In this document: positions 3,341 through 57,021 of the stretch, one piece after another
How positions within the stretch are numbered: position 1 is the stretch's first letter
Layout of the letters: each line of letters starts with the position of its first letter
Position numbers and translations under genes: made by a program
DNA from: an uncultured Enterobacterales bacterium
GTDB lineage: Bacteria; Myxococcota_A; UBA796; UBA2385
Direction: 5' to 3'
NCBI GenBank assembly: GCA_964464515.1
Contig: CAYXGP010000002.1
Span: 3,130-67,129, forward strand
DNA length: 64,000 nt
Notes under the pieces: model-generated
The model's database searches: none
What the model was told of the DNA's origin: nothing
Seen by the model: the letters and a program-made list of their open reading frames with translations, nothing else

Positions 3341-4657
3341 ATGAAGATCACCCGCATCGATCTGTGGCACGTCACGGTGCCCCTGCCGGCCCCCTTCCAC
3401 CCCTCGTGGATCCCGGGCTTCCGCCAGACCGAGAACCGCTTCGACCTGATCCGCCTGGCGACGGCCGACGGCATCGAGGGCTACAGCGCCGCCCCGTGCA
3501 TGGGCAGCGAGCGGGACGGGCTCGGCGCCCTGCTGGGGCCCTACCTGCTGGGCGAGCGCGCCGACGACATCCCGTCGATCCGGCAGCGTATCCGCGAGAT
3601 GGGCTACCTCGGGCTGCGCATCGGATGGATCGAGGCCGCCTGCTGGGACATCATCGGCAAGGCCGCCGGCAAGCCCGTCTACCAGCTCCTGGGCGGCGCG
3701 CCGGGGCGCGTGGGGCTGTACGCCTCGACCGGCGAGGTCCGCACCGGCGCAGAGCGCGCGACCGAGGTCGCCGCGCGCGCCGAGGAGGGCTTCAAGGCGA
3801 TCAAGCTGCGGGTGCATGCACAGACACTGGAAGAAGACGTCGCGCAGATTCAGCAGACCCGCGACGCGGTGGGCGACGGGCCGATCCTTGGGGTCGACGC
3901 CAACCAGGGGTGGCGCGTGGCGGTGATCGCCGACGCCCCGCGCTGGGACTACGACCGCGCGCTGGCGTTCTGTCGCGCCGCCGAGGCGGCGAAGCTGAAG
4001 TGGGTCGAGGAGCCGCTGGCCATGGACGCCTACGACGATCTGGCGCGCCTCCGGGCCGCCACGACCGTCGACATCACCGGAGGCGAGCTCAACAACCAGG
4101 GCCAGCCCGAGTTCGGCGTGATGCTGAAGCGGGGCTGCTACGACGCCTACCAGCCGGACGCGGTCTTCACCGGGGGCGTCGCCGAGACGTGGGAGATCAT
4201 CTCGCAGATCACCGCAGCCGGCGCGCGCTACAGCCCACACACCTGGACCAACGGCATCGGCTTCGCGATCAACCTGGCGCTGTTCGGCGCGTCGTCGTTC
4301 CGCGACCAGACCCTGCTGGAGTACCCCTACGATCCCCCGGGCTGGGTGCCCGAAGGACGAGACGGCCTGCTGGTCAAGCCGTGGCTGCACGAGCGGGGAG
4401 AGCTGGCGCTGCCGGAGAAGCCCGGGTTGGGGTTCGAGATCGACGGTCGCGCGCTGCGTCGATACGGGCGTCGGTTCTTCACGGGGACGAAGGTTCGGGT
4501 GTCGCTGAGCGCGGTTCGGCAGCGGGGGCTGCGGGAGGCGAAGCACCTGGGCGCTGTGCGCGACGCGCGGTTGGCGGATCGGCACCGGGAGTTGGAGGAG
4601 ATGTTTGCGGGGGGGGCGGATCCGGTGGGGTTGGCGCTGGAAGGTGTGAAGGACTGA
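3341..4657 (+). CDS. Enolase-superfamily enzyme (mandelate racemase / muconate lactonizing enzyme family)
   Basis: MKITRIDLWHV N-terminal capping domain. Barrel motifs FKAIKLRV, GVDANQGW, VEEP, TGGE. Start set to ATG 3341, because the 5' part of ORF 3257 overlaps the divergent gene. Confidence 0.85.
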   Translation: MKITRIDLWHVTVPLPAPFHPSWIPGFRQTENRFDLIRLATADGIEGYSAAPCMGSERDGLGALLGPYLLGERADDIPSIRQRIREMGYLGLRIGWIEAACWDIIGKAAGKPVYQLLGGAPGRVGLYASTGEVRTGAERATEVAARAEEGFKAIKLRVHAQTLEEDVAQIQQTRDAVGDGPILGVDANQGWRVAVIADAPRWDYDRALAFCRAAEAAKLKWVEEPLAMDAYDDLARLRAATTVDITGGELNNQGQPEFGVMLKRGCYDAYQPDAVFTGGVAETWEIISQITAAGARYSPHTWTNGIGFAINLALFGASSFRDQTLLEYPYDPPGWVPEGRDGLLVKPWLHERGELALPEKPGLGFEIDGRALRRYGRRFFTGTKVRVSLSAVRQRGLREAKHLGAVRDARLADRHRELEEMFAGGADPVGLALEGVKD

Positions 4658-4722
4658 TCGCGTCACGGTCGTCGAGATCGGGGAGGGGGATGTGTCGGGT
4701 GGAGGTGCGAGGCTGACCGCGC

Positions 4723-5811
4723 CTACCCCGGAGCGCCGTCCACCCGCGGCCGCACCAACATCGGCGCATACACCCACAGAAAAATCCCCATCGCGATCGT
4801 CCACAGCGTGCCAGAAGCATGTAGCGCCCCCACGCTGCCCGGCGCAACCACCCGGACCACCCCCGCCAGCACCATGCACCCGTAGCTGACCGCCATCGGG
4901 GCCGGCGCGATCAGGGTCCGGCCCGTGTGCCCCAGCGCGACCCGAGACATCATGCCCAACGTATAGGTGCCCAACACTCCAACCGTGACGGCATGCAGCG
5001 CCGCCGACAGCGACAACACATCCGGCCGCAGCGCAGCAAGCGACCACAGCCCCAACGCGACCGCCACCCAGGCGTAGCCCGCATGCAGCACCCACAAAAT
5101 GGGAGACGAAAAAACCTGCGTGGTGTGCCAGCCGCGCATGCGCAGGGCGTTGAGCAGCGCGCCCACGCCCGCCACCGCCGCCGTCGGCCACGCCAATTCG
5201 GGGAACGCGGCCAGCGGCACCAGTATCAGCGCGCAGCCGATAGCGGCGTCGTCCAGGCGCGACCGGGGCCGCACCGTCGCCTTGAGCGCGTTGCGGGTGA
5301 ACAGCGGCGTGATGCGACCGCCGAAGATCACCACCACCGACAGCGCCGCGAACACCGCGACCCGAAGACCGACGACCGCGTGGGCCGGCGAGAGGTGTCC
5401 GGCGGCGTCGCCGATAGCCATGATCAGCACGAGCAGCGGGAACCACGCGTTGCGCACCGAGCGGGCTCGGAAGATCGGCCGGCCGATGACAGCGGCCAGG
5501 ACCAACAGAAAAATCACGTCCAGCGCCACCGCGGGCCCTACAAACATCACCCGCGCAACCCGCCCGGCCATCCAGAGCCCGGCCAACCCGGCCAGCGCCG
5601 CTCCGGTCAACGGCGGGCTCTTCGTCCACTTCGGCACCGCGGTGAGGAAGAAGCCCCCGAGCACCGCGCCGACGAAGCCGAACAGCATCTCGTGGGCATG
5701 CCACAGCATGTCGATGCCGGGCAGCGCGTGGCCAGACAGCGCCGCCAGCCACACCGGCACCAGCAGGACCGCGCAGACGCCAGCCAGCAGGAAGAAGACC
5801 CGAAAGCCCAT
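4723..5811 (-). CDS. nnrS: NnrS-family heme/copper membrane protein
   Basis: Polytopic membrane protein with GFRVFFLLAG and HAHEMLFGF motifs typical of NnrS. Start is ATG 5811 (GTG 5823 possible). The longer ORF to 6087 has poor codon usage and overlaps the caspase gene. Confidence 0.8.
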   Translation of the reverse strand: MGFRVFFLLAGVCAVLLVPVWLAALSGHALPGIDMLWHAHEMLFGFVGAVLGGFFLTAVPKWTKSPPLTGAALAGLAGLWMAGRVARVMFVGPAVALDVIFLLVLAAVIGRPIFRARSVRNAWFPLLVLIMAIGDAAGHLSPAHAVVGLRVAVFAALSVVVIFGGRITPLFTRNALKATVRPRSRLDDAAIGCALILVPLAAFPELAWPTAAVAGVGALLNALRMRGWHTTQVFSSPILWVLHAGYAWVAVALGLWSLAALRPDVLSLSAALHAVTVGVLGTYTLGMMSRVALGHTGRTLIAPAPMAVSYGCMVLAGVVRVVAPGSVGALHASGTLWTIAMGIFLWVYAPMLVRPRVDGAPG

Positions 5812-5825
5812 CGCGAAGATCACAG

Positions 5826-5937
5826 TCTCTCCAGCAACAGTATCTCCAGCAACAGCAGTGTCTCCAGCAACAGTGTCTCCAGCAACAGCAGTGTCTCCAG
5901 CAACAGGGTCTCCAGCAACAGGGTCTCCAACAGCAGC
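5826..5937. repeat. Tandem array of 7 units of 15 or 18 nt with core TCTCCAGCAACAG (minus strand CTGTTGCTGGAGA)
   Basis: Read directly from the sequence. The units are spaced 15,18,15,18,15,15 nt. The array lies between the caspase stop (5946-5948) and the nnrS start (5811). Confidence 0.95.
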
Positions 5938-5945
5938 GGGGGGCC

Positions 5946-7478
5946 TCAGAGGGCGAGCCCGACGGAGAGCGTGACGTCCAACATGGCGGTGCCGTGGAGC
6001 TGTCCACCATCGGCGTACCAGACCCACCCGCTGGCGGCACCCAGCCGCGCCGAGGGACGCGCGATGAACCTGCGCGCCGGCAGCCACTCCAGGGCGAGCG
6101 AGGGCACCGGCGTCAGGCTCATCGCAACCAGCTCCGGATCGTCGGGTGTCAGCAGCAGGAAGCCGGCCAGCCCCAGGCCGGCGCGGGCCTGGAGACTCCC
6201 CGGGTTGAGCGCGCGCTCCAGGCCGAGCCCCGCGCTTCCAGTCGGCCGCGGCCAGCGCACAGTGGCCACGCCCCAGCCGGTGATCTCCCAGGGGGGCCGC
6301 AGCGGCCGGGCGATCCTTCCAGCCACGGCGATCCCACCCAGCCGCTCATCGCCGAAGGACCACCCGCCGAGTCCGCCGGAAACCCGCACGCGATCGCGCC
6401 GCACCAGCGACTCCAGCCCCACCCGCGAGGCGTCATCCTCCAGCTTCAGGCGCCGCCGGGCGACCACCGTCCCGGTGTGGGGGGCGACCAGCTCGACCCG
6501 GTGGGTGCCCGGACCCAGCACGATCTGGCCGGGCAGCTCCCCCTTGGTCTCCCCGTCGATCCGCACGCCGTAGCCGTGGAGTCCGGCGCTGTACGAGACG
6601 ACGCTGGGCAGGGGCGCGCGGCGCGGCGTGCCGGAGAGCACGATCGGATCGCCCCCCAGCATCTCGGCGCGCAGGTACGGCCGCTGCGCGCCGTCGGTGA
6701 ACGCAAACGTGCGCCCGCGGGCGTAGCCGTGGGCCTCTGTGGCGGTGACCGCGCCGTCTCCGTCGGCGTCGCCCTTCTCCAGCGCCTCCAGGAAGAACCC
6801 GGTGTAGATGTCGTGGCCCAGCGCCTCCGACTCCCGCGCCACCTCGTCCATCGCGCAGACCCCGATCACCATCACCGCCTCGGAGACGCGCAGCAGGTCG
6901 TCCAGATCCGGACCCTTGCGACTCGCCAGCTCCTGGCGAACCGCCGGCGCCCACGCGCTCTTGCCGCGCCCCGAGTGGCAGGTGGCGAGCAGCGCCAGCC
7001 GCCGCCGGGACGGCAGCCCCTCCAGCCACGCCCACAGCTCAGCGTGAGAGAGCGCGGTGCCCGGGATGTCCGCCATGCGGGTGTCCGAGAGCACGAGGTA
7101 CTGCTCCAGATCTCCCGAGGCGTCAGGGGACAGCGTGCCGTGGGTGGAGAAGTAGACGAAGACCATGTCGTCGGGGCTGCGCGCGACCGCCGTGATCTCC
7201 TCCAGGGCGGCGCGCACCGCGGGCCGCGTGGTCTCGTGGGGCTGCGTCAGGACGATCACCCGGTCGAAGTCCCCCACCGCGGGGTCGTCCAGCAGGCTCC
7301 CCAGCGCGCGGGCGTCGTCGTCGGTGTACCGCAGCGGCGCGAAGTCGGCCGAGAAGCCAGCCGGCCCCACCAGCAGCGCGATCCGGCGGCCGACGAACGG
7401 CGCACCCTGCACCCCCGCGGCCGGCAACCGGAGGGGACCCGCGAGCGCCGTCAGCACCAGCCAGAGCGCGATGATCAC
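5946..7478 (-). CDS. Secreted caspase-family (peptidase C14) protein with an EF-hand-like DxDxDG loop, a PEGA domain and a beta-rich C-terminal region
   Basis: Signal peptide MIIALWLVLTALAG. Catalytic dyad context YFSTHG and LLATCHSG. DADGDGAVTATEA loop. PEGA-like GYGVRIDGETKGELPGQIVLGPGTHRVELV. GTGA overlap with the upstream anti-sigma gene. Confidence 0.85.
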   Translation of the reverse strand: MIIALWLVLTALAGPLRLPAAGVQGAPFVGRRIALLVGPAGFSADFAPLRYTDDDARALGSLLDDPAVGDFDRVIVLTQPHETTRPAVRAALEEITAVARSPDDMVFVYFSTHGTLSPDASGDLEQYLVLSDTRMADIPGTALSHAELWAWLEGLPSRRRLALLATCHSGRGKSAWAPAVRQELASRKGPDLDDLLRVSEAVMVIGVCAMDEVARESEALGHDIYTGFFLEALEKGDADGDGAVTATEAHGYARGRTFAFTDGAQRPYLRAEMLGGDPIVLSGTPRRAPLPSVVSYSAGLHGYGVRIDGETKGELPGQIVLGPGTHRVELVAPHTGTVVARRRLKLEDDASRVGLESLVRRDRVRVSGGLGGWSFGDERLGGIAVAGRIARPLRPPWEITGWGVATVRWPRPTGSAGLGLERALNPGSLQARAGLGLAGFLLLTPDDPELVAMSLTPVPSLALEWLPARRFIARPSARLGAASGWVWYADGGQLHGTAMLDVTLSVGLAL

Positions 7479-8269
7479 GGGTCCACCACGATCTCCAGGG
7501 CCGCGTGACCCACCCCCTCCAGCGGAGATCCGCGCTGCCAGGCCGCGATGACCGCCGCTGGATCGTGGGCGTCCGTCGCTGCGACGGCGACCAGCGTCAC
7601 GGCGCCGGCCTGATCATCGAGCCCCAGCGCCACCCAGTCGGAGCCCACGGCCACGCGACGCGCCCCGCCCGGCTCGACGACCGCCGCGCCTCCGGGGGGC
7701 GGCGAGAGCTGGGTGACCTGCCCCGCGGCGTCGATCGCGAACAACATCCGGGCCGCCGGCTCAGCGACGTCCAGCGAGAAGATAAGCACCTGCTCCCGAG
7801 AGAGACGCATGCCAGCGTTCACCGGCGTCTCGAACCGACCGCCGACGCCCGCCAGGACGCGCAGCGCCACCGCCGGCGCCGCCGCGACGCCCTTCTCACC
7901 GGTCCAGCCCTCCTCTCCCGGCTCAGGAGACGTCGGCTCCGTGGGAGAGAGGATCGGCATCGCGAACACCAGCACCAGCGCCGCGGCGATCAGCGCCCCG
8001 AACCAGCGACGGCTCTGCAAGACCTTCGTGGGCGGCGGGGCCTGGATCGCCCGCCACATCTCCTGCTGCTCGTCTGCCGACGGCGCCACCGGGCTCGCCG
8101 CCTCGGCCTCGATGAGCCGCAGCAGGATGTCCACTGTGAGCCCCTGGTCCAGCACCCGCTCGCAGTCGGGGCAGCCACCGGAGAGGTGCTCCGCCAGCGC
8201 CCGCAGCTCCGACGGCGGCAACTCGCCCGCGAGCAGGGACTCCAGACGGTCGGCGGTCAGGTGGTCCAC
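7475..8269 (-). CDS. Anti-sigma factor (zf-HC2) with one TM helix and a DUF4384-like periplasmic domain
   Basis: HLSGGCPDCERVL zinc-finger motif. TM helix WFGALIAAALVLVFAMPIL. The C-terminal segment MRLSREQVLIFSLDV..MLFAIDAAGQVTQLSPP resembles DUF4384 by eye. It overlaps the sigma gene by 13 nt. Confidence 0.8.
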   Translation of the reverse strand: MDHLTADRLESLLAGELPPSELRALAEHLSGGCPDCERVLDQGLTVDILLRLIEAEAASPVAPSADEQQEMWRAIQAPPPTKVLQSRRWFGALIAAALVLVFAMPILSPTEPTSPEPGEEGWTGEKGVAAAPAVALRVLAGVGGRFETPVNAGMRLSREQVLIFSLDVAEPAARMLFAIDAAGQVTQLSPPPGGAAVVEPGGARRVAVGSDWVALGLDDQAGAVTLVAVAATDAHDPAAVIAAWQRGSPLEGVGHAALEIVVDP

Positions 8270-8895
8270 GGCGAGCCCTCCAGGGCGTCGATGAGCTGTC
8301 CCAGCTTCCGGCGCTTGAGCCAGCTACGGAATCTGTGCAGGCGGGTGGTGACGGCGGTGCGGCTCAGCCCGAGCTGATCGGCGATCTGCTGCGTGGTGTG
8401 GCCGGGGGTGGAGTAGAACAGGGCGGCGGCCTGGCGCTGACCCGGGTCGGGGCACGCCGCGATGACCTCTGCCACCGCGGTGATCAGATGGGCCTCATCG
8501 CCATCTCTGGTGGTGGGCTCTCGCGCCATGAGGGTCAGCACCTTGCGCTCACGCTGCTGCCCCTCGACCCAGCGCAGGCACGCGCGGCGGGTGATGGTCA
8601 TCAGCCACCCCGAGAAGCGCTCCGGATCGCGCAGATCGTCCAGCGCAGACAGCGCGCGGGCGAAGCTCTCCTGCGTGAGATCCTGCGCTCGGGCGCGGTC
8701 GCCGCGGGCGAAGGCCAGGCAATAGCCGAAGACCGCGTCGACGTGGGTGGTGTACAGAGACTCCTGCGCGGCCGGATCGCCAGCGCGGGCCCTGTGCACC
8801 AGGCGGGGAATGCCGGGATCGATGGCCGGAACCTCTGCGCCGAATCTGCGATGACGGGTAGCGTACCCGCCGCGCAGCCCACGGGATAACCCCAC
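8257..8895 (-). CDS. ECF-type RNA polymerase sigma-70 factor
   Basis: Region 2 (DLTQESFARALSAL, FSGWLMTITRRA) and region 4 HTH (TTQQIADQLGLSRTAVTTRLHRFR). The exact start is uncertain, either GTG 8895 or an internal GTG. Confidence 0.85.
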   Translation of the reverse strand: MGLSRGLRGGYATRHRRFGAEVPAIDPGIPRLVHRARAGDPAAQESLYTTHVDAVFGYCLAFARGDRARAQDLTQESFARALSALDDLRDPERFSGWLMTITRRACLRWVEGQQRERKVLTLMAREPTTRDGDEAHLITAVAEVIAACPDPGQRQAAALFYSTPGHTTQQIADQLGLSRTAVTTRLHRFRSWLKRRKLGQLIDALEGSPWTT

Positions 8896-16672: not shown

Positions 16673-17293
16673 GTGATCCAGACCCGCTTCAAGTGGTTCG
16701 GCGTCGTCGGCGTGATCTCGGTGGTCCTCGATCAGTGGACCAAGATGCTGGTGCAGGAGCACATCCCCCTGGGCCGCGGCGAGATCACGCTCATCGACGG
16801 GTTCCTCTCGCTGGTCCACGCCGAGAATTCCGGCGCGGCCTTCGGCATGGGCAACGACTGGGAGTACCGCATGGTGGTCTTCGCGGTGTTCACCGTGGTG
16901 GCCCTCGGCGTGCTGGTCAAGATGCTGCTGGAGCTGCCGACCTCCGATCGCTTCCAGAGCACCGCGCTGGGGCTCATCACCAGCGGCGCCGTCGGCAACG
17001 CCATCGATCGGGCGGACAAACAGAGCGTCACCGACTTCATCCGGGTCTACACCGAGCACGAGACCCTCCGTCCCACGCTGATCGAGTGGTTCGGCACCGC
17101 CGAGTGGCCCAGCTTCAACGTGGCCGACGCCGCCATCGTCATCGGCCTGTTGATGTTCGTCGTCCACTGGATCTTCCTCGAGAAGGACGAAGAAGACCTG
17201 CAGTCCGAGCCGCCTGCCCGCTCCCTCCCCGATGATCCCGGGCTCCCCGATGATCCCGGGCTCCCCGATGATCCCGGACAGGCCACCGGGTAG
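16673..17293 (+). CDS. lspA: Lipoprotein signal peptidase II
   Basis: VHAENSGAAFG and WPSFNVADAAI catalytic-Asp motifs. Four TM helices. GTG 16673 is preceded by GGAGG. The C-terminal tail holds LPDDPG x3. Confidence 0.9.
   Translation: MIQTRFKWFGVVGVISVVLDQWTKMLVQEHIPLGRGEITLIDGFLSLVHAENSGAAFGMGNDWEYRMVVFAVFTVVALGVLVKMLLELPTSDRFQSTALGLITSGAVGNAIDRADKQSVTDFIRVYTEHETLRPTLIEWFGTAEWPSFNVADAAIVIGLLMFVVHWIFLEKDEEDLQSEPPARSLPDDPGLPDDPGLPDDPGQATG
17225..17278. repeat. 18-nt x3 tandem repeat (CTCCCCGATGATCCCGGG) encoding LPDDPG x3 at the lspA C-terminus
   Basis: Read directly. The units are 17225-17242, 17243-17260 and 17261-17278. Confidence 0.95.
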
Positions 17294-32163: not shown

Positions 32164-33194
32164 CCACTCAACGCCGTGATCCAGCGACAGCGGGGCTGGT
32201 GACAGCAGAACAGGTGACTGCGGGACAGGTGTCTGCGGCCGACATCCAGGCCGCCGCCGAGCGGCTGCGCGGGCGGGTCCATCGCACCCCCATCCTGACC
32301 AGCCGCGCCATCGACCGTCTGACGGGCTGCTCGGTGTTCTTCAAGGGAGAGCACCTCCAGCGGGGCGGCGCCTTCAAGTATCGGGGAGCGCTCAACGCGG
32401 TGCTCCAACTCACCGACGAAGAGGCGCGCCGCGGCGTGATCACCCACAGCAGCGGAAACCACGCCCAGGCCGTGGCCATCGCAGCCGCGGAGCGCGGGAT
32501 CCCGGCGCACTTGATCATGCCTGAGGACAGCCTGCCGGTGAAGATCCGCGCGGTGCGCGGCTATGGCGGCGTGGTGCACCTCTGCCCGCCGACCCTCGCC
32601 GATCGGGCGACGACCGCCGCGCGCGTGCAGGCCGAGACCGGCGCGACGTTCGTCCACCCCTACGATCACCCCCGGATCATCGCCGGTCAGGCCGGCGTGG
32701 GTCTGGAGCTCGCCGAGCAGGTGTCCGACCTCGACGCGGTCATCGCCCCGGTCGGCGGCGGCGGGCTGCTCAGCGGCGTAGCGCTGGCGCTGCACCACGC
32801 GGCGCCGCACGTGACGGTATTCGGCGCAGAGCCCTCCGGGGCCGACGACGCCGCGCGCTCCCTCGCGGCGGGGCAGCGCCTCCCGCAGACCGATCCCCGC
32901 ACCATCGCCGACGGCCTCCGCACCGGCCTCGGCGCGTGCAACTGGCCCATCATCAAGCAGCACGTGGCGGGGATCATCACGATCGATGACGACGCCATCA
33001 TCGCGGCGATGCGCCTCATCTGGGAGCGCCTCAAGGCGGTGATCGAGCCCTCGGCGGCCGTGGGACTGGCAGCGCTCCTGGCGCAGCCCCACCGATTCGA
33101 CAGACAGCAATTCGGCGGGCGGGTGGGGATCGTCCTCAGCGGCGGGAACGCCGATCTCGATCGGCTCCCCTTCGGGGAGCGTGTGATCCGCTGA
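32160..33194 (+). CDS. PLP-dependent serine/threonine dehydratase family enzyme (serine-racemase-like)
   Basis: PLP-Lys motif GGAFKYRGA. HSSGNHAQA. GGGGLLSG. The start is ambiguous: TTG 32160, or one of three in-frame GTGs at 32199, 32214 and 32229. Confidence 0.85.
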   Translation: MTTQRRDPATAGLVTAEQVTAGQVSAADIQAAAERLRGRVHRTPILTSRAIDRLTGCSVFFKGEHLQRGGAFKYRGALNAVLQLTDEEARRGVITHSSGNHAQAVAIAAAERGIPAHLIMPEDSLPVKIRAVRGYGGVVHLCPPTLADRATTAARVQAETGATFVHPYDHPRIIAGQAGVGLELAEQVSDLDAVIAPVGGGGLLSGVALALHHAAPHVTVFGAEPSGADDAARSLAAGQRLPQTDPRTIADGLRTGLGACNWPIIKQHVAGIITIDDDAIIAAMRLIWERLKAVIEPSAAVGLAALLAQPHRFDRQQFGGRVGIVLSGGNADLDRLPFGERVIR

Positions 33195-33199
33195 TCTCC

Positions 33200-35356
33200 G
33201 TGCGCAAGCGCCTCGGCCTGGGGCTGCTGCTCTGCCTGCTGCTGGCAGTGGCCGTGGAGCGTCACCTGGCCACGCCGGTGCCCACCGCAGAGCCCCACAG
33301 CGCGCCCGGTCGGCGGCTGTTCCTGCTGATCATCGACTCCCTGTCGCTGAGCGATGTGGAGGGCGTCCCCGCGCTTGAGACGCTGGCCGCGGAGGGCTAC
33401 GCCGCGGAGATCGAGCCCTGCCTGGAGCGCATCACCGTCACGTGTGTCGGCGAGATGCTCACCGGCCGGCGCACGTTCTCGCTGCTGGGACTGTTCCGGA
33501 ACCAGGGCGGCCGGGGCGACGATCCGGGGCCGAATCTGCTGCGGCAGGCCCGCGCGGACGACCGCCGCGTGGGGATGATCTCCGCGGGTGACCTGGGCCG
33601 CTACATCGCCGACATCGACACCGATCGCCGCTTCAAGGAGCCCGATCCGGACGCGGAGATGGCGACCGTTCGAGAGCTGGTGACCGAGCACGATCTGGTG
33701 CTGTACCACTACATCTGGCACGACATCGTGGCGCACCGGAGCGCGGCGGACTCCAAGCGCTACGCCGACTCGCTGGAGGCGCTGCAGACGCTGGTCACGC
33801 AGATCCAGACCGACCTCCCCCCCGACATGGACCTGATGGTCTCCGGCGATCACGGCCACACCATCGACGGCCGCCACGTGCAGGGGCAGGACGTGCCCAC
33901 GTGGGTCGCTGTCCGCTCCCCGGCGGTGGCGTCTGGCCGCGCGGACGAGCGGCTGCCGATCACGGTGGTCCGCGATCTGGCGGGGCAGGTCACCGGCCTG
34001 ACCCCGGCGCAGACGGGGGAGGCCGGACCGCAGAGGGCGCCGTGGGCGGCGCTGGCGATCTGCGTCGCCCTGGCCGTGGCGGCCGGCCCCCTCGCGCTGG
34101 CCGCGCTGGCGGGCGGCGCCCTCATGGGGTTGACGCTCGATCTCTGGCTGGCGTGGATGCACACGCCGGTGCACCTCCCTCGGGTCTACGACGTCCTCGG
34201 CGTGGTGCCGGCCGCGGCCGCCGCGGCGGCGTGGGTCCGGCGGCGGACCCTCAGCTCGGCCCTCGCCGGGCTCGCGCTGGCCTGCGCGGTCATCGTCGTG
34301 GCGCTGTACCCGGTCCCCCACCACTACGGGGTGCTGAAGAACGCCTCGAACATCATGCTGACGGTGGTCGTCGGCGCAGCGGCGATGGCGCTGGTGCGGC
34401 CGGCACCTCGTCGGTGGCTGCCCGCGCTGGTCGGCGCCGTGGGCGTGTGGGCCTGGCTGAAGCTGGCCAGCTTCAAGGTGTGGAACCTGGCCATCGCCCG
34501 ATACCGCGCCGCGGCCCTGCTGGACGGCCCGGTGCCTGCGCCGCTGATCATCGGCGCGCTGATGGCAGCGCTCCACGCGCTCCTGACCCCCCGACTGCCC
34601 CCCCGGATCCGCGCCGCCACGGCGCTGCTCGCCGGGGTCCTGGCCAGCGGCGTGCTGCCCCTGCCGCCGCTGGCGTATCTGCCGCCGATGCTGCTGCTGT
34701 GCGGCGTGTTGATGCGCCGGGTCGCCCATCGCGCGGCCTGGGTCTCGCTGCTCACCGCGGCCTGCATGCCCCACCTGTTCGACGCCGACCGCACGTTCGG
34801 GATCATCGCGCTGCTGCTGGCCTCCGGGCTGGTGCTGTGGTCGCTGCGCCCCGCGGTCTCCGAGGACAGCGCCACCGAAGACAGCGCCACCGAGGACAGC
34901 CACCGCACGCGGAACGTACTGCGCGCGGTGGTCGCGCTGCTGACCGGGTACGTCGGCCTGGCCTGGAGCTTCGGGCTCACCTTGTCGGGGATCGACTTCG
35001 CCTTCGCCATGGCCTGGCTGCCCGAGGGGCGCTGGCACGAGCGCCTGTGGCTGCCGATCACCCTGCTCACCACGATGAAGGTGATGACCCCTGTGATCCT
35101 CACCGCCGAGCTGCTGCGCCGCGAAGGAGCCGACATCGCCCGGCAGGTGGGCGCGATCGCCACGACCCTGGGCAGCCTCCGGGTGTGCCTGGTGATGACG
35201 CTGGCGATCACGTGGGTCGCCGCCCGGGGCGCCGACGCCGCCGGACTGCGGCTGGCGCTGATGCTCCAGGATGGGTTCTTCTGGGCGCTGATCGCGCTGG
35301 GGTTGGGGCTGCTGCTGCCCCGTGGCGGGCCTCCTCCAAAGCCCGAGGCGGCTTGA
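33200..35356 (+). CDS. Alkaline-phosphatase-superfamily transferase with an N-terminal catalytic domain and a C-terminal polytopic membrane domain (PIG-N/PIG-O-like architecture)
   Basis: LFLLIIDSLS metal site. ITVTCVGEMLTG (Thr nucleophile position). VSGDHGH. This is followed by about 450 aa of hydrophobic helices. EDSAT x2.6 loop repeat. Confidence 0.7.
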   Translation: MRKRLGLGLLLCLLLAVAVERHLATPVPTAEPHSAPGRRLFLLIIDSLSLSDVEGVPALETLAAEGYAAEIEPCLERITVTCVGEMLTGRRTFSLLGLFRNQGGRGDDPGPNLLRQARADDRRVGMISAGDLGRYIADIDTDRRFKEPDPDAEMATVRELVTEHDLVLYHYIWHDIVAHRSAADSKRYADSLEALQTLVTQIQTDLPPDMDLMVSGDHGHTIDGRHVQGQDVPTWVAVRSPAVASGRADERLPITVVRDLAGQVTGLTPAQTGEAGPQRAPWAALAICVALAVAAGPLALAALAGGALMGLTLDLWLAWMHTPVHLPRVYDVLGVVPAAAAAAAWVRRRTLSSALAGLALACAVIVVALYPVPHHYGVLKNASNIMLTVVVGAAAMALVRPAPRRWLPALVGAVGVWAWLKLASFKVWNLAIARYRAAALLDGPVPAPLIIGALMAALHALLTPRLPPRIRAATALLAGVLASGVLPLPPLAYLPPMLLLCGVLMRRVAHRAAWVSLLTAACMPHLFDADRTFGIIALLLASGLVLWSLRPAVSEDSATEDSATEDSHRTRNVLRAVVALLTGYVGLAWSFGLTLSGIDFAFAMAWLPEGRWHERLWLPITLLTTMKVMTPVILTAELLRREGADIARQVGAIATTLGSLRVCLVMTLAITWVAARGADAAGLRLALMLQDGFFWALIALGLGLLLPRGGPPPKPEAA

Positions 35357-41127: not shown

Positions 41128-42158
41128 CTTGATGGTTCCTCGCTTACCGAGGGCTCCTCGCTTACCGATGGTCCCTCGGTGAGCGAGGTTCCGCCCCGAT
41201 AGAAACGCGCCACGAGGGTGTCGATGTCCGGCTCGGAGATCGAGAGGTCGGCGATCGTGAGCCCCGCGGCGGCGGCGCGGTCGAGCACTGTCGCGATCAG
41301 GGGCGCCCCGGAGCGGCCCGGGGTGAGCGGCACCACGCACCGGCGACCTTCGGGGCCCCACTCCGCGACGAGTCCCTGGGTGAGCCGGTGCTGCTCCGAC
41401 GGGGGCAGCCCGCTGGCGAGATCCACCGTGAGCCGCCGCCGTCCGCCCAGGCGCGCCTTCAGATCTGCGGTGGGGCCATCGAACAGCACCCGTCCCCGAT
41501 CGAGCAGGACGACCCGCTCGCAGACCGCCTCCACGTCAGCCAGGTCGTGCGTGGTCAGCAGCACGGTGGTGCCCATCTGCCCGCCGAGCCCCACCAGGAA
41601 CTCGCGGATCCGCAGCTTGACGTCCACATCCAGGCCGATGGTCGGCTCGTCGAGCAGCAGCAGCGGGGGAGCGTGCAGCAAGGCCGCCGCCAGCTCACAG
41701 CGCATCCGCTGGCCCAGCGACAGCTCCCGCACCGGCTGACGAAGCAGCGGCCCGATGTCGAGCAGATCGTCCAGCATCTCCAGCCGCTGACGACCGACGG
41801 CCGGATCGACCTCGAAGATCGCCAGGAGCAGCTCGAACGCCTCGGTCACCGCGAGGTCCCACCACAGCTGGCTGCGCTGACCGAAGACCACCCCCAGGTG
41901 CCGAACGTGCTGCCGCCGCTCCCGCCAGGGCACGCGCCCCGCGACGTGGAGCGTGCCCGCGGTCGGTCGCAGGATGCCGCACAGCAGCTTGATGGTGGTG
42001 CTCTTGCCCGCGCCGTTGGGCCCGATGAGCCCGACCCGCTCCCCCGGGTGGATGACGAGGTCGAGGTGATCGAGCGCGACCCGCTCCTCACCGCCCACGC
42101 GCAGCAGGTCGCGCAGAGCCCCCAGCACGCCGGGACGGCGGTCCCAGGTCTGGAACAC
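41124..42158 (-). CDS. ABC transporter ATP-binding protein
   Basis: Walker A GPNGAGKST, Q-loop VFGQRSQLWWDL, signature LSLGQRMR, Walker B LLLLDEPT, H-loop TTHD. Confidence 0.9.
   Translation of the reverse strand: MFQTWDRRPGVLGALRDLLRVGGEERVALDHLDLVIHPGERVGLIGPNGAGKSTTIKLLCGILRPTAGTLHVAGRVPWRERRQHVRHLGVVFGQRSQLWWDLAVTEAFELLLAIFEVDPAVGRQRLEMLDDLLDIGPLLRQPVRELSLGQRMRCELAAALLHAPPLLLLDEPTIGLDVDVKLRIREFLVGLGGQMGTTVLLTTHDLADVEAVCERVVLLDRGRVLFDGPTADLKARLGGRRRLTVDLASGLPPSEQHRLTQGLVAEWGPEGRRCVVPLTPGRSGAPLIATVLDRAAAAGLTIADLSISEPDIDTLVARFYRGGTSLTEGPSVSEEPSVSEEPSR
41134..41187. repeat. 18-nt x3 tandem repeat at the ABC ATPase C-terminus (encodes SLTEGP/SVSEEP x3 on the minus strand)
   Basis: Read directly. 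The units are 41134-41151, 41152-41169 and 41170-41187. Confidence 0.9.
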
Positions 42159-42205: not shown

Positions 42206-45200
42206 TCAGGAGGTGCCCTCGGGCCCATCCTCCGTAGACACGGTCTCCGTCGGCGCAGTCTCCGTCGGCGCAGTCTCCGTCGGCGCAGTCTCTGCCGGAG
42301 CAGTCTCTGCCGGAGCAGTCTCTGCCGGAGCAGCCTCCGCCCCGGAATCAGACTCCACAGCCCCAGCATTGGACTCCACAGACTCATTCTCCGCGGGCTG
42401 CGCTGGCGCAGCAGGTGCGGCGGCCCCAGCCTCCGCGGCCTCCGTCGGCGCGCCGGTCGGCGGGGAAGGACGCGGGCTCTTCGCGCGGCGTCGGCCCCGC
42501 CCGCCCCGCTTGCGCACGCGACGGGTCTCCTCCGACCGCTGGGGGGCCTCCTCGACGGTGGGCACACGAGCCGCCGCGTTCGCCATCATGATGGCCGCCT
42601 GTCCGCTCTCGATCAGCGCGCCGATCTCCTGCATCCGACGCTCGTACACCTGCCGCTCCGCGGCGTTCTTCCCGGTGCGCTCCCGGGCGGTCTTGAGCGC
42701 CTCAAAAGCGGGGAACACCTGCCCCTTCATCATGAGCAGCTCGGCCAACACCGCGTAGCCCTCGGTGGGCGAACCCTCCGAAGCGAGCACCTTGTTCAGC
42801 AGCACCTCGGCCTCGTCGAGGCTGCCGCGCCGCATCAGGATGCGCGCCTGCGTGACCATCGCGCCCGCGCGGTCGTGGCGTCGTCGGGCCTGACGCACCA
42901 GCCAGTCGGCCTGCTCCAGGTCGCCGTCCGCCTTGTCCAGCAGGACATCCGCCAGCAGGAGCAGCACCCGGGGGTTCTTCCCCTCGCGGGTCTGTGCGTC
43001 GCGCAGGAGCGCCTCCGCCTGCTCGAGCAGCTCCGCCCGGCCCTCCGTGTCGAGCATCGCGCGCTTGCGCAGGAGCGACGCCTGGCGTGCCAGGTGGTGG
43101 GGGCTCTGCGGGGCGAGACGCGCCGCCTCCTCCAGCGAGGCCTGGGCGTCCTCCCAACGATCGACGCCGAGCTGGGTGTAGATCTCGCCGAGCAGGCTGT
43201 AGGTGTCGGGCATCATCGGCTCGAGATCGCGCGCCGCCTCCAGCAGCGTGGTGGCCTCGGCGAATCGGCGCTGCTGCATGTACAGACCCGCCAGGCGACG
43301 CCGCATGCGAGCGTTCTCCGGGAACAGGGCGATGCCCGCCGTGAGCGCCTCGACCGCCCTCCCCCGCGCGCTGCGGCTGCCGTGGAAGCTCGCCAGGGCG
43401 TGGAAGATCTCCGGCGTCGGAGCGGCCTCGATCCCGCGAGCATAGGCCGCGATGATGACGTCCGCCTTTACGCGCTCGGCCTCCTTGAGCTGCGCGTCGA
43501 GGAGCAGCAGGGCCGGGCTCTCGGCGCCCTTTCGGAGCGCCTCGTTCAAGCGGAGTCGGGCGATGTCCAGGCGCGGCTTCTTCCGCCGCAGGATCCCCCG
43601 GATGTTCTCGACGATGGCGTCGAAGTCCGGGTAGTCCATGCCGGTCCGCGAGCGTCCCCGCCGCGCCAGCGTCAGCAGGCGGTTGCCCTCCTGCGCGCTG
43701 CGGAGGGCCATGAGGGGCTGATCCCGCCGCTGGCGTCGGCACACCTCCAGGTAGTGATTGCCCAGCGCCTCCATCCGCTCGAAGTCCTCGATCTCGCGCA
43801 TCGTGAGCTGCTCGGCGACGAGGGGGTGGATGTAGTACCGCCGCTCGTCCTGCGAGGGGGTCTGCTCCAGCAGGCCGGCGGCCAGCAGCTGCAGCCGAGC
43901 GGTGCGGTTGATGCCGATGGCCTGGAGCGCGTCGGGGAGAGCCGGCTCACGCAGCAGCGCAGCGGCGGCGAGGCGTCCCCGCTGCGCCTCGTCGAGATCT
44001 CCGATTCGCCGCCCCAGGTGCCGCCGGAGCGCCTCGAGGTCGCCCGCTTCGGACGACTTCAGGAACCGGGGCTGCTTGAGGAGGCCGTCGATGTCCTTCT
44101 CCTCTCGAACCACCAGGGCCAGATACCGGTTGGCCATGGGGTGGCCGAAGGTGCGCTCGTTGATCGGGCCGAAGCGATCACGCGGGAATTCCGGAGCGTG
44201 GTGGTTCTGGTACAGATCGAACAGCTCGCGACCCTTCAGGCCGCCCAGCTCCAGCACCCGCAGGTTGGCGCTCTGCCCCTCGCGATAGAAGCTCGGGACG
44301 TGCTCGGAGATGAAGACGAGGCGCAGCGCCGGCTGCGACAGCAGGAGGCGCCGCAGGAGCAGCTCCAGGCTGCCCTCTCGGTAGAAGCTGCGATCGCGAC
44401 GATCGAGCAGGCTGGAGATCCCGTGGATGACCAGCGCGCGACCCGCCATCGCTTCGCTCTGGAGGATCTCGGCGGTGAGCTCGGCGATCTCGGTGGGCGT
44501 CGGGCGCCCCCGCGGCTGGCGGATGGCGCGATGCAGACGCGCGTCGCCCGCGGCGTTGGTGAAAGCCGCCACGAGAGCCAGGAAGCTGTCGGCCTGACTT
44601 CCGTGACCGATCGTGAGATCCGGCAGGCGCTCCAGATCGCTGGAGGCCAGCGCTTGCTCCACCAGCCACCGGCGCCCCACGCCGGGCGGACCGGTGACGA
44701 CGATGGGGCCGCCGTCGGACTCCAGGAGAGCACCCAGCGCCTGCAGCTCCTCTTCACGGCCCACGAGGATCGGTCGAGGGGCCTGGTGGCGGGGCTTCTC
44801 CACCCGCTTCGGCGCCGCTGCCACGGCCACGACGGGCGCACCCACCGGCAGGGACGCCAGGAAGTCCTTCGCCCGAGACTTGATCTGCTCCATCTTGAGC
44901 AGACGCAGCGACATCGGCATCGCGAAGGGGTTGAACGCCCGCGCCGCCACATAGAGCCGCGGTCGATGCGCGCCGGCCTTTATCAGCTCGGCGATCTGTC
45001 CCAGGGCGCGGCCGTCGGTCGCGGCCTCGGGCTCCACCAGCACGAGGACACCGCCCTGCTGGGCGAGGACCGGCGAGAGGGCAGCAGCAGAGAGAGCCGA
45101 TGTGGGGTTGGCAGCCTCGGCTCCCAGCGCCACGGCGGGGACCTGCCGCCTGCGCAGCTCGGCCAGGACCTGGGGATTACCCAGCGCCCGGCCGCCCACG

Positions 45201-45247: not shown

Positions 45248-45417
45248 ACCGTTGCCTCGTCTGCGATGCCGTTGGAGCTTGTTCGGCTACCATCCGGCCT
45301 GTCTTTCGGGAACCGACGGCCTAACGGACGCTACCGAGCGATTCAACACCGCGCGCCTGCGCCGGATTGGATCGCCTGCGTACCGATGGCGCCGCCTGAG
45401 GAGATACACTCCCCTCG

Positions 45418-48400
45418 ATGACCGGCCGCTCCCACCTCGGATGGACACTCACCGAGCAGCTCCCCGCCGCCTCCGCCACCGTGGAGGTCTGGCGTGCCCG
45501 CCGCGAAGCCCGCTCTGAAGAGAGTGGCGGGACGGGGGTTGCCGAGGCCGAGATCTACCTCGGCCCCGCGGTGCTGGCCGAGCGCGCAGCGACGCTGCCG
45601 ACGTGGGGACCGTTCGCGCCCATCGAGAGCGGCCGCTCCGGAGAGCACTGGGTGGTGGTGGTCCCCGATCGCCTGCACAAGACCATCGCCGAGGCGTGTG
45701 AAGCGCTCTCGCACCCGGCGCGGCTGGGTGTCGCCTGGCACATCGCGGCGGTGGTGGCAGAGCTCCACGACCACGGCGGCTCCCACGGCGCGCTCCACGC
45801 CGGCTTCACCGGGCTCGACTCTCAGGGTCGCCTGTCGATCCGCCCGGCCCTGGCTACGCCGATGGTCACCGAGCCCGATCCCTCCGCGAGCCCCACGGCC
45901 GTCGACTGTCGGCAGCTCGGACGCATCCTCGACGCTCTCCGGCTCGATCGCTTCGACGACCCCGGCATCCCCTTGCTCCTCGGGGGGCTGCGGCGTGAGC
46001 GCGCGCGACTTCGGCTTCAGCCAGGGCGCGCCATCCGTCAGGCCATCTCCGCCATCCTCGTACGCTGGCCTGACTGGTCCGACACGCTCAGCGGAACGCT
46101 GGGTGAGGGGTGGGGCACTGACGGCATCGCGGGTACACTCCGCCAAGTCGCCGACCCTCACTGCGAGCTGGCCCCGGCGCCGCCGCGCGGCACCGAGATG
46201 TCGTTCCGACCCACCAGCGGCTTCCGGACCAGCAGCGCGGGACGAACCAGGGCGGCCATGCGTCCTCCCCCGCGTGCGGTCCCCGCGTTCACGGCGCGAG
46301 TCCGGATGGGACCGAGCGGTCCCCTCGCCCGCTCGATGGAGCCGATCGCAGCCCCCCAACCCGCCGCGCTCAGGATGCCCCTGCGCGGGACCGATCCCCC
46401 CGCCGCACTCCGGATGCCCCTACGTGGAGCCGATCCCCCCGCCGCTCCCCCCATCGTCCGCCTCCCGCTCCCCGCAGCCCTGGGAGGGGCCCCCTCCCGA
46501 GAGGCGCCGCGACCGGTGCGGGTCGCCTCGGCCCACGAAGCCCCCGAGCCGGTGAGCGCCGCGCTGCGTGTCCGCCCACCACAGCTCTCCAAAGCCGGGG
46601 CCGTCAAGGCCAGGACCATCGACGCCGAGCCTGACGAGGCCGTCGAAGACGAGCCGACCGCCAGCGGCGTCCCCATCTCGCGTGCTGCTGCGGTGGTGCT
46701 CCCGACAGCAGCGATCGCGCAACACCTCCGCAGCGACCCACACCTCCGCAGCGACCCGCACCTCCGCGCCGAAGCGCCGACGGCGGTCGTTGTGTCGCCG
46801 CGCGTCCGCGTCGAACCACTGACTCAGGCGAGGCCAGCGGCTGAAGCGCCGAGGATGAAGGCGCCAGCGACCGTGTCAGCAGTGACACCCGCGGTGGCGC
46901 CCGCAGGAGTGACACCCGTAGCCGAGGCTCCGGAAGCGAAGACTCCAACAGCAGAGACACCCGCGGCGGTGGCTCCAGAAGCAGAGACACCCACGACTGA
47001 AGAACCTACAGCGGAGACGCCCTCACCCGAGTCTCTGGAGACAGGGACCCTCGAGACGGGGACCCTCAAGACAGGGACCCTGGAGGTGGGAAGACCCGTC
47101 GTGGAGACGCCCTCGATAGAGGCACTCCCAGCGTCGGAACCGCCCACACCAGAGCCGCCAGCGCCAGAGCCTGTGGCCCCGCCGGTCCCCGCGCTGCCGA
47201 CGAACCTCGACGCCGGCGCGATAGCCGACCCGCCAGGGCCAGACGACCCACCAGAGCCAGCCAAAGCAGTGCCAGCCAAAGCAGTGCCAGCCGAAGCGGG
47301 GCCAGGCGATGCAGAACCGGACGAAGCAGAGCTGGACGCCGAACCAGCAGACTCCCAACCAGCGGACTTTGAGCCCGACGCCCCCCGGCCAGAGGCACCC
47401 ACCGCGACGGCGTCGGAGGTCGCTGCGCCGGAAGTCGCCGCGCTGCCAGTCGCTGTGCTGCCAGTCACTGCGCCGGAGGCCGTCCTGGCGTCACCGGTGG
47501 AGTCTCCGCCGGTCGCCTCGCAGCCCCAACCCGCCGCGCCGAAAGCCACGCCAGAGCTGCAGGCCCCAGAGCCGCAGATACCCGGCCTACCGGAGCTGCC
47601 GCCGCTGGAGCCCCCCCTCGAACCGCCGACTCCAGCGGGCGACGGCGCGCAGCCCCAGGCCTCGGACACCCCGGCCGAGACGCTCGCTCCTCCCGCCGAT
47701 CGGCCTCCACCCGATCCGGGCCCGCTGTCACCCGCGGAGCTGACCGAGGTGGACGAGCCCCCCTGGCTCGACGCGCCCGTTCTGGCAGACCTGGAGCCGA
47801 TGGAGGACTCCTTCTCGTTCACCAGCACCTCGGACACCCCGGACGATCTGCTCGATGGAGTGATCCAGGGCGGCTGGGAGCGGGTGGAGATCGACTCCGA
47901 GCCGTTCGCAGACGACGAGCCGTTCATGTTCGACGACTCACAGTCTGCAGAGCCGCCATCTGCAGAGCCACCATCTGCAGAGCCACCATCTGCAGAGCCA
48001 CCATCTGCAGAGGACGACGAGCTGTTCATGGATGAGCGGTTCGCCGAAGACGACCCCGAAGAGCTGCCGATCGAGCGCCCGGTGAGGGTCGCGTCAGAGG
48101 AGCTGAGCGACGCGCCCACCGTCGAGACCCGATCGGCCTCACCCCCCCCGGCCATCTTCGCCGTACCCACCCCGCTGCCAGACGAAGACGCCCCCACGGT
48201 GTTCGACGAGTCACCGATGCGCTCCCCCCCGGTGCTCGACCCCGGGCCCGAAGACGAGACCGTCGCGACCTTCGAGCCCCCCGCCGGTGTGGCCGACGCC
48301 GCGCCGCGCTGGGCCGGCATCCGGGGCGTCACGGGAGACGAGGCGCGCGAGGCCGAGCTGGGCTCCGGGAAGTGGTCCGAGACGGGCAGCCGGTCGATCG

Positions 48401-54363: not shown

Positions 54364-54427
54364 AGTCCCCCGCGGGTGGCGCTACCTTGGGCGGCCACGA
54401 CGGACTCCACCAACAGAGGTCCCGCCC

Positions 54428-56035: not shown

Positions 56036-56046
56036 CGAAAAACTCC

Positions 56047-56988: not shown

Positions 56989-57021
56989 GCCCGCGATAGC
57001 CAACGCAGACGGAGGCCCCCC

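Follow-up and report, generated by a model that had tools for sequence, protein, structure and literature searches.

The spacer between a caspase-family gene and nnrS was found to be filled almost entirely by a tandem array of 15- and 18-nt units, and this array is probably an ordinary lineage-specific minisatellite that lies between the two cistrons, encodes no protein, and carries the Shine-Dalgarno (SD) sequence of nnrS in its last unit. In the 64-kb stretch of DNA that was analysed (the window), the array lies outside both conserved proteins; it is absent from the orthologous loci and has no RNA-structure, terminator or known-family signal. From these observations we infer that the units arose by slippage, that the last of them serves nnrS as an SD sequence, and that the array is not translated. 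An earlier note on the same DNA had offered four explanations, namely a Leu-rich caspase tail (either cut off by a nonsense mutation or still made through readthrough), an independent upstream open reading frame (ORF) coupled to nnrS, a non-coding repeat, and an error at the caspase stop codon; the third is the best supported of the four.

The caspase gene and nnrS are co-oriented on the minus strand, and the array has the same orientation. The intercistronic spacer (5824..5945, minus strand) measures 122 nt from the caspase stop to the GTG of nnrS, is nearly all array, and has a GC content of 0.55, compared with 0.70-0.78 in its flanks. The minus strand from 5948 to 5812 reads TGA GGCCCCCCG, then the seven units, then CTGTGATCTTCGCG, then ATG, and the 134 nt counted previously between the TGA (5948-5946) and the ATG at 5811 were confirmed. 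The tandem array itself is real. TRF, a regular-expression unit map and motif counts against shuffles gave seven head-to-tail units at 5826..5936 on the minus strand (15, 15, 15, 18, 15, 18, and 15 nt), with the core CTGTTGCTGGAGA and the consensus CTG(CTG)TTGCTGGAGACA. All on the minus strand, unit 1 occupies 5936-5922 (CTGCTGTTGGAGACC, degenerate), unit 2 5921-5907, unit 3 5906-5892, unit 4 5891-5874 (18 nt), unit 5 5873-5859, unit 6 5858-5841 (18 nt), and unit 7 5840-5826. The seven units claimed at first are thus present, but the exact core CTGTTGCTGGAGA occurs in only six of them, unit 1 being a permuted variant. At period 15, TRF reported 6.8 copies (score 134), and at the higher-order period of 33 nt (15+18) it reported 3.0 copies with 95% identity (score 177); a repeat-family search returned unit spacings of 15, 18, 15, 18, and 15. 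When up to two mismatches were allowed, the 14-nt core had seven matches in the array and one elsewhere in the 64-kb window (54403-54416, isolated, two mismatches), while 0.43 matches were expected from dinucleotide shuffles of the whole window and none of 100 shuffles reached eight. Inverted repeats on either side of the array, which a MITE-like element would have, were searched for, and only weak pairs at chance level turned up.

The caspase-family gene (5946..7478, minus strand) encodes 510 aa and stops at TGA 5948-5946. Its protein matched Pfam PF00656 (E 3.1e-10) and is laid out as a signal peptide, a Peptidase_C14 domain, a small beta-sandwich, and a C-terminal eight-stranded OmpA-like barrel. 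There are about 46 full-length orthologues (497-533 aa). Among the 34 that were aligned (about 50% identity), 31 had the stop in the same alignment column, the remaining three had short unrelated extensions, and none had a Leu-rich C-terminal tail. In the AlphaFold2 model (mean pLDDT 83), eight long strands covered residues 365-509, the last of them residues 493-509 of 510, and Foldseek with this model recovered MALT1 and caspases as well as the OmpA transmembrane domain (E 9e-5 to 3.6e-4). By the alignment and the model, the C-terminus of the protein is the natural one and lies in the last strand of the OmpA-like barrel; the gene product is predicted to be an outer-membrane protein. The array does follow the TGA directly and in the caspase frame, and lspA, an ABC ATPase gene and a STAND-like gene in the window carry translated repeat tails. 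Nevertheless, it is very improbable that the array is a former C-terminal extension of the caspase protein, or one reached by readthrough of the TGA. Apart from the common stop of the orthologues, the terminal residues form the closing strand of the barrel, the four orthologous loci that were scanned have no repeat after the stop, and the other tail arrays of the window are polar and acidic, not Leu-rich. Moreover, considering the C-terminal signals of outer-membrane proteins, a 41-residue hydrophobic appendage after the last strand would be expected to disturb barrel assembly. The earlier note had itself named orthologues with the same stop and no repeat downstream as grounds for refutation, and by that standard the idea of a tail is largely refuted.

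On the other side of the array, nnrS (4723..5823, minus strand; Pfam PF05940, E 5.5e-101) encodes 366 aa from GTG 5823 or 362 aa from the alternative start, ATG 5811. An exact look-up found the 366-aa version of NnrS on record and did not find the 362-aa version. The closest orthologues among the 120 matches listed were 366-381 aa long and began at the same alignment position (MPTIFLMGFR vs. (E)TVIFAMGFR), and the match to the Pfam NnrS profile starts at residue 2 with profile position 6. Judged by these alignments, the true start of nnrS is GTG 5823. The 41-45 residues that the array would add were covered by no NnrS homologue among the 120 matches listed; the query coverage of an array-extended NnrS was 89-90% in the closest orthologues and 82-96% over all 120. 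An N-terminal extension of NnrS, with the array translated in the nnrS frame as (VAGDT)n, is accordingly most improbable, even if such an extension would be similar in composition to the polar repeat tails encoded elsewhere in the window and the nnrS frame stays open across the array as far as 6087. It had been remarked that codons of the nnrS frame end mostly in A or T, which we confirmed (GC3 0.16); low GC3 is also found in genuinely translated arrays of the window. However, no ATG, GTG or TTG occurs in this frame from 6087, which lies 140 nt inside the caspase gene, to GTG 5823, the Val codons of the units are all GTT, the closest homologues begin where GTG 5823 places the start, and the Pfam profile begins at residue 2.

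By direct reading, the last unit contains the SD-like GGAG (5829..5832, minus strand) 5 nt upstream of this GTG, and GGAG recurs in each unit of the array. Such motifs are the norm in this genome: of the 12 called starts, about 9 are preceded by GGAG or GAGG at a distance of a few to about 8 nt, and at the caspase start the motif lies farther upstream. The 15 nt 3' of the array (5825-5811) match a rotated unit at 12 of 15 positions. Considering that the last unit probably supplies the SD sequence and that the next 15 nt still resemble a rotated unit, the other six units can be regarded as upstream copies of an SD-containing segment.

The claim that the array has coding-like codon usage deserves a closer look, for the counts behind it were all correct. 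Read in the caspase frame past the TGA, the sequence gives 41 sense codons (GPP LLLET LLLET LLLET LLLLET LLLET LLLLEI LLLERL), of which 24 are Leu codons (17 CTG and 7 TTG) and 36 end in G or C, and a second TGA follows at 5822-5820, 8 nt before the ATG. This LLLET frame also had the best codon log-odds of the six (+0.35 to +0.71, the others -0.48 or lower). But such usage is not distinctive: the best-frame codon score of the array was reached by 12.4% of shuffled units and by 52% of random 15-mers from the window once they were tandemised, and a GC3 of at least 0.8 in some frame was seen for 55% of shuffled units. An open frame is uninformative here, as none of the six is interrupted within the array. 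Furthermore, 12 of the 41 codons are rare ones (TTG, 4.4% of Leu; ACA, 2.6% of Thr; ATA, 1.2% of Ile; AGA, 0.3% of Arg), and among 764 real 41-codon windows, not one had so many. Rare codons are also found in translated tail arrays elsewhere in the window, which leaves this particular argument against translation weak. Substitutions among the units comprised three synonymous and two nonsynonymous changes in the LLLET frame and one and four, respectively, in the nnrS frame, and both differences of unit 1 from the consensus were synonymous in the LLLET frame; the changes are too few to be meaningful. The 41-aa LLLET peptide was compared with 5.8e9 proteins, and of 24 candidates sharing words with it none reached E<=1. 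The LLLET frame is most likely a by-product of a unit made of the two commonest codons of the genome (CTG and GAG), not a translated tail.

The most serious competitor, still an unlikely one, is a TTG-started upstream ORF of about 30-38 residues, (LLLET)n, that would stop at the TGA within GTGA and pass ribosomes to nnrS by termination-reinitiation, with no function needed for the peptide. Ribosomes may enter at the in-frame TTGs, each with GGAG at 6 nt, or by re-initiation after the end of the caspase gene, 16 nt before the first TTG. Several features fit this scheme. No stop interrupts the frame between 5945 and the TGA at 5822-5820, and its codon score, as noted, is the best of the six; the GTG of nnrS (5823-5821), a start that agrees with the orthologues, overlaps that TGA in a GTGA (5820..5823, minus strand); four unit junctions contain GGAG-N6-TTG, and the genome does use SD motifs of this kind; the unit lengths are multiples of 3; no terminator separates the caspase gene from nnrS; and MIRU ORFs, coupled to the downstream gene at a spacing of -4 nt, offer a precedent (PMC12548453). 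On the other hand, no gene caller reports the ORF, the spacer being free of gene calls in the independent ENA assembly. The codon score equalled by 12% of shuffled units, the rare codons and the lack of any similar peptide among the 5.8e9 proteins all tell against it, as does its start, TTG being a minority start codon. The overlap is fairly likely by accident, since GTG plus A always contains a TGA, which one of the remaining two frames is bound to meet. Coupling would also be needless, because nnrS already has an SD sequence from the last unit, and with a Glu at every fifth or sixth residue the peptide would not form an amphipathic helix, nor a clean membrane-spanning one. The geometry is thus compatible with a coupled ORF, but nothing positive supports the ORF itself. 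Somewhat less likely still is a multi-start relay, in which the SD motif and in-frame TTG of every unit would be used and ribosomes handed on to nnrS through the GTGA. If this were true, gain or loss of 15- and 18-nt units would tune nnrS translation without breaking the frame, and an uncultured Myxococcota-like lineage would possess a MIRU-like coupling device with far shorter units. An upstream ORF in general, if real, would be a compact natural case of repeat-number-tunable translational coupling outside mycobacteria.

A role in DNA or RNA regulation was also considered, whereby the array would provide sigma-54-like -24/-12 elements or tandem transcription-factor sites, or would act as a GGA/SD leader that titrates ribosomes or a CsrA-type protein, with repeat number tuning nnrS. 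The NorR-type motif is GT-N7-AC; this candidate was rejected, as the unit gives GT-N8-AC. Any upstream activator site of a sigma-54 promoter here would fall inside the caspase coding sequence. Four sigma-54-like sites, TGGAGA-N5-TTGCT, arise on the minus strand where a 15-nt unit follows a unit (5833-5848, 5866-5881, 5899-5914, and 5914-5929). They have the exact GG-N10-GC spacing with flanking T, TT, and T, and the pattern TGG-N8-TTGCW had five matches in the window against 1.6 expected, four of the five being in the array. Seven GGA motifs lie 15-18 nt apart, and a promoter of its own for nnrS, if there is one, would have hardly any non-coding DNA to lie in other than the array. In Vibrio cholerae, the sigma-54-dependent NorR regulon includes nnrS (PMC1274295), and elsewhere the gene belongs to other NO-responsive regulons (PMC3345576). 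The sites are nevertheless a weak lead, and we regard a regulatory element as improbable. They represent one unit counted four times and hence a single post hoc observation; at all four, the TTGCT box and the spacing are present but the -24 box has three mismatches to TGGCAC (AGA for CAC), and the 18-nt units break the spacing. By direct reading, the strand has no CAA, and the FNR/NnrR-type box TTG-N8-CAA is absent. Terminator-like or sigma-70-like sites were not found in the spacer between the two genes. Covariance models of Rfam 15 gave no match at E<=1 on either strand of 4500-8000, CsrB/Rsm-type sRNAs included, and the folding energy of the spacer was no better than that of shuffles (z-score 0.31). 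Nor is the array conserved at other nnrS loci.

The comparison with other loci and assemblies agrees with lineage specificity. At five loci around four caspase orthologues, the genes for the ECF sigma factor, the anti-sigma factor and the caspase are kept, whereas the downstream gene is different and is not nnrS; at the four loci where the sequence after the caspase stop was scanned, it has no array. For nnrS, the closest orthologues have different gene neighbourhoods, and upstream of them no array is annotated or visible. Within a species-representative genome set that lacks the source species, the caspase protein found only one match, a distant actinobacterial one (L002, 34% identity). A metagenome scan with two adjacent units yielded eight loci, all unrelated to this one; four of them are one soil locus with an 18-nt repeat that encodes KPSVSS on the opposite strand, as part of a small membrane protein's tail. 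Neither scan recovered another strain. A literature search on myxobacterial minisatellites returned nothing relevant. As for the source DNA, an ENA scaffold (L003) has the same TGA and an identical array, and a Logan contig has the same TGA and the array start and ends inside the array. The last of the four proposals, an artefact of sequencing or assembly that affects the TGA or the array, is very unlikely. It is true that repeats are hard to assemble, that Logan contigs break inside the array, and that all copies apparently come from one sample series, the two full, identical copies probably from one sample. But the breaks fall where a 31-mer recurs and would be expected there without any polymorphism, and the stop agrees with the end of the orthologues.

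The non-coding minisatellite thus remains the reading that we favour, and a plausible course of events can be outlined for it. A 15-nt unit was most likely duplicated by slipped-strand mispairing or unequal recombination; later slippage of a CTG would have produced the 18-nt variants, and duplication of the 33-nt (15+18) higher-order unit may have been a more recent step. At its 3' end the array borders directly on the translation-initiation region of nnrS, to which the last unit would contribute its GGAG. Some features do not sit easily with this reading, for a non-coding repeat has no need of unit lengths that are both multiples of 3 (15 and 18), the LLLET frame is the best of six by codon log-odds, and it closes on the nnrS start as GTGA, with GGAG 6 nt before in-frame TTGs, in the geometry of a coupled ORF.

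The window as a whole is rich in 15/18-nt arrays at tolerant places, namely C-terminal tails, linkers and another gene junction. The arrays reported earlier in C-terminal tails were verified for lspA, the ABC ATPase gene and the STAND-like gene. So many arrays of this period indicate an active repeat-generating background.

The main value of these results is a correction. In a 70% GC genome, a CTG/GAG repeat looks gene-like in one frame by composition while six frames stay open, so that codon-style arguments on a five-codon unit are nearly weightless; it is orthologue comparison and structure prediction that settle where the genes end. The more interesting lead may be the segment itself, in which 15/18-nt arrays are unusually frequent at the ends and junctions of genes.

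Compared with known systems, the array differs from leader-peptide attenuators such as the Leu-rich leuL leader in that it has no alternative terminator/antiterminator hairpins, that nnrS is unrelated to leucine metabolism, and that its 24 Leu codons stand in a repeat, unlike a short regulatory run; a short Leu-rich frame directly upstream of a gene is common to both. Its 15/18-nt units, with a higher-order period of 33 nt, are much smaller than MIRU units, which are roughly 40-100 bp. Apart from the isolated match at 54403-54416, full units are confined to the array within the 64-kb window, and the metagenome matches are unrelated, so dispersal like that of MIRU was not seen; moreover, no start codon overlaps the upstream stop here, and the host is not a mycobacterium. 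The likeness to MIRU, as described in PMC12548453, lies in tandem repeats between co-oriented genes, in the same orientation as the genes. According to that paper, which summarises Supply et al. (1997), the stop of the ORF inside a MIRU overlaps the start codon of the next gene at -4 nt, and here CTG TGA lies over GTG ATC in the same manner (5823-5820).

The tails of lspA (LPDDPG x3), the ABC ATPase (SVSEEP) and the STAND-like protein (APAET/APTET) resemble the array in their 15/18-nt periods, their position at gene ends and their look of recent duplication. However, those tails stand upstream of the stop and form polar or acidic linkers, whereas the array follows a conserved stop and would be Leu-rich and hydrophobic if read. 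Relative to the intergenic minisatellites (VNTR loci) of bacteria, the array is distinguished by units that are multiples of three and by filling virtually the whole spacer up to the start codon, and the copy-number variability that defines such loci is not observable from two identical full copies. It resembles them in the head-to-tail copies of a 10-100-nt unit, the degenerate edge units, the higher-order period, the non-coding position between genes, the lineage specificity, and the absence from orthologous loci.

Seven tandem units run head-to-tail on the minus strand between the caspase-family gene (5946-7478) and nnrS. Re-reading of that strand bore out the earlier note, both for a tandem array after the caspase TGA and for its counts (a 134-nt gap and 41 sense codons, with 24 Leu and 36 codons ending in G/C, closed by a second TGA at 5822-5820). 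From the caspase stop TGA (5948-5946), the 9-base stretch GGCCCCCCG leads to u1 (5936-5922; CTGCTGTTGGAGACC, a permuted variant), followed by u2 (5921-5907), u3 (5906-5892), u4 (5891-5874; 18 nt, with an additional CTG), u5 (5873-5859), u6 (5858-5841; 18 nt), and the last unit u7 (5840-5826), downstream of which CTGTGATCTTCGCG precedes an ATG at 5811. The spacer proper is 122 nt (5824-5945), 111 nt of it array. Tandem Repeats Finder reported 6.8 copies at period 15 and, at a higher-order period of 33, 3.0 copies with 95% identity. The unit core occurs seven times in the array and once elsewhere in the window, where 0.43 occurrences were expected. We consider it probable that the array is a lineage-specific, noncoding intercistronic minisatellite and that the SD of nnrS is supplied by its last unit.

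The gene upstream encodes a 510-aa Peptidase_C14 protein and is the last of a conserved ECF sigma factor/anti-sigma factor/caspase module with overlapping genes. A search of 5.8 billion proteins recovered about 46 full-length orthologues (∼50% identity, 497-533 aa), mostly from uncultured bacteria, some with source names that suggest Myxococcota, Oligoflexia, or Proteobacteria. Among the 34 orthologues in the C-terminal alignment, 31 share their end column with the window protein (motif ...LVxGxxF), while the remaining three carry short, unrelated extensions. In the AlphaFold2 model (mean pLDDT 83), the caspase domain is accompanied by a small beta-sandwich and, at residues 365-509 of 510, by eight long antiparallel strands; in Foldseek, the N-terminal part of the model matched paracaspases and caspases and the C-terminal part the OmpA transmembrane barrel (E 9e-5 to 3.6e-4). 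Therefore, the protein ends naturally at the TGA, directly behind the strand that closes an outer-membrane-type barrel. This TGA is also present in the Logan contig of SRR8062322, which stops within the array, and, together with an identical array, in the ENA scaffold of sample SAMN10231911. Thus, two readings raised earlier are ruled out for practical purposes: that the array is a caspase tail cut off by the TGA, which is very unlikely given the shared end column and the barrel closing there, and that the TGA or the array is a sequencing or assembly artefact, which is scarcely credible. The caspase on that scaffold (P0001, 5785-7317 of L003) is 99% identical to that of the window. Four N-terminal residues differ, all V-to-G or F-to-C, that is, T-to-G at second codon positions, a pattern that resembles systematic error in sequencing or assembly more than it does variation between strains.

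The gene downstream is nnrS (PF05940, E 5.5e-101), with a product on record of 366 aa starting at GTG 5823. Its closest orthologues (54-65% identity, 366-381 aa) start at the same alignment position (MPTIFLMGFR vs. (E)TVIFAMGFR), and none covers the array-encoded residues of the nnrS frame. That frame has no ATG, GTG, or TTG from 6087, deep within the caspase gene, to 5823; the Val codons of its units are all GTT. Because of these orthologue starts and the lack of a start codon in frame, an N-terminal extension of NnrS through the array was excluded and is extremely improbable.

The LLLET frame, that is, the caspase frame read past its TGA, had been described as coding-like in codon usage. All six frames are open over the array, and the LLLET frame indeed ranks first among them in codon log-odds, because it repeats the genome's two commonest codons, CTG and GAG, 17 and 7 times. 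However, the effective sample is one 5-codon unit, and the score was equalled by 12.4% of shuffled units and by 52% of random window 15-mers once tandemized; 55% of shuffled units reached a GC3 of at least 0.8 in some frame. The frame is thus not coding-like in any discriminating way. Rare codons (TTG, ACA, ATA, AGA) make up 12 of its 41, a number reached by none of 764 real 41-codon windows, but this carries little weight either way because truly translated repeat tails in the window are likewise rich in them. A translated upstream ORF coupled to nnrS would find its signals here, since an in-frame TTG follows GGAG by 6 nt at four junctions and the frame ends on a TGA overlapping the nnrS GTG (GTGA). 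We regard both as coincidences and the coupled ORF as rather unlikely, given the nondiscriminating score, the absence of any ORF placed in the spacer by a gene caller, and the absence of any protein resembling (LLLET)n among the 5.8 billion searched. Most likely, the composition of the minisatellite produced the LLLET frame as a by-product.

GC falls to 0.55 in the array region from 0.70-0.78 in the flanks, as expected of noncoding DNA in a genome of 70.5% GC. No terminator-like or sigma-70-like site was found at the spacer, no Rfam family matched the locus, no inverted repeats of note flank the array, and its RNA is not unusually stable (z = 0.31). The junction into the next 15-nt unit reads TGGAGA-N5-TTGCT, with the GG-N10-GC spacing of sigma-54 promoters, and nnrS of Vibrio cholerae belongs to the sigma-54-dependent NorR regulon (PMC1274295). 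A regulatory role at the DNA or RNA level is nevertheless improbable, as the candidate -24 box has three mismatches and the four sites are a single unit counted four times. Each unit also contains GGAG. Of the 12 starts called in this genome, about 9 have GGAG/GAGG a few to ∼8 nt on their 5' side, and the last copy (5832-5829) lies 5 nt ahead of the nnrS GTG, which suggests that nnrS has its ribosome-binding site in the 3' end of the array. Past the last unit, the next 15 nt (5825-5811) still agree with the rotated unit at 12 of its 15 positions. Tandem duplication of the segment adjoining and including this SD would be the simplest history of the array.

Around four caspase orthologues, all five loci retrieved keep the module, but the downstream gene differs from that of the window in each, and no array directly follows the caspase stop in the four orthologue loci scanned for repeats. 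The two closest nnrS orthologues examined have unrelated neighborhoods and ordinary short upstream regions, and metagenome contigs yielded only unrelated sequences for two adjacent units. By this comparison, the caspase-nnrS junction and its array appear specific to this lineage. The module itself (window 5946-8895; loci L003-L009) often has AttH-like and amine-oxidase genes ahead of it; its anti-sigma factor has a weak, sub-threshold DUF4384 match, and its protease is exported, with a C-terminal OmpA-like 8-stranded barrel. One caspase locus (L006, 5622-5681) carries, 83 nt past the stop, CGCCAAGA three times and, 12 nt on, the reverse complement TCTTGGCG three times, forming a long hairpin of tandem octamers.

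Gene ends and junctions in the window carry an unusual abundance of period-15/18 arrays, so a slippage-prone background is the economical explanation of the caspase-nnrS array. Translated 15/18-nt arrays lie in or near C-terminal tails of real genes at 17225-17277, 41131-41178, 42243-42339, 54078-54218, and 34860-34900; they include LPDDPG x3 in lspA, SVSEEP in an ABC ATPase, APAET/APTET x6.5 in a STAND-like AAA_16+TPR protein, and GSTTG x5 in an unannotated 536-codon ORF, while the TEDSA repeat of a phosphodiesterase-like ORF is internal. In several translated arrays, low GC3 and many rare codons give the look of a recent expansion. A plus-strand ORF (45400-48813), open for 1137 codons and with a weak PEGA match as its sole Pfam signal, holds at least eight distinct arrays (periods 15, 18, and 39) within 1.7 kb (46360-48012); among them, the copies of a putative SAEPP x4.6 array (47944-48012) are 98% identical. 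A second gene-junction array (32164-32240; period 15, 3.5 copies) lies between an FHA-GAF histidine kinase, whose stop (32163) it directly follows, and a PALP-family enzyme. Read in the PALP frame (…LVTAEQVTAGQVSAADIQ…), each unit contains a GTG, and the PALP start codon probably lies within the repeat, so that its N-terminus could vary with copy number. A period-10 array (56971-57001; CCGCGTGAGC, 2.5-3 copies), not a multiple of 3, sits exactly at the boundary of the co-oriented ORFs 55984-56988 and 56989-57996.

The caspase-nnrS array belongs with the bacterial intergenic tandem repeats, a known kind. ORFs within mycobacterial MIRU repeats have been described with a -4 geometry of translational coupling (PMC12548453), which the GTGA closure of the LLLET frame reproduces. 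Although unit size and dispersal place the array outside the MIRUs, its geometry is reminiscent of them.
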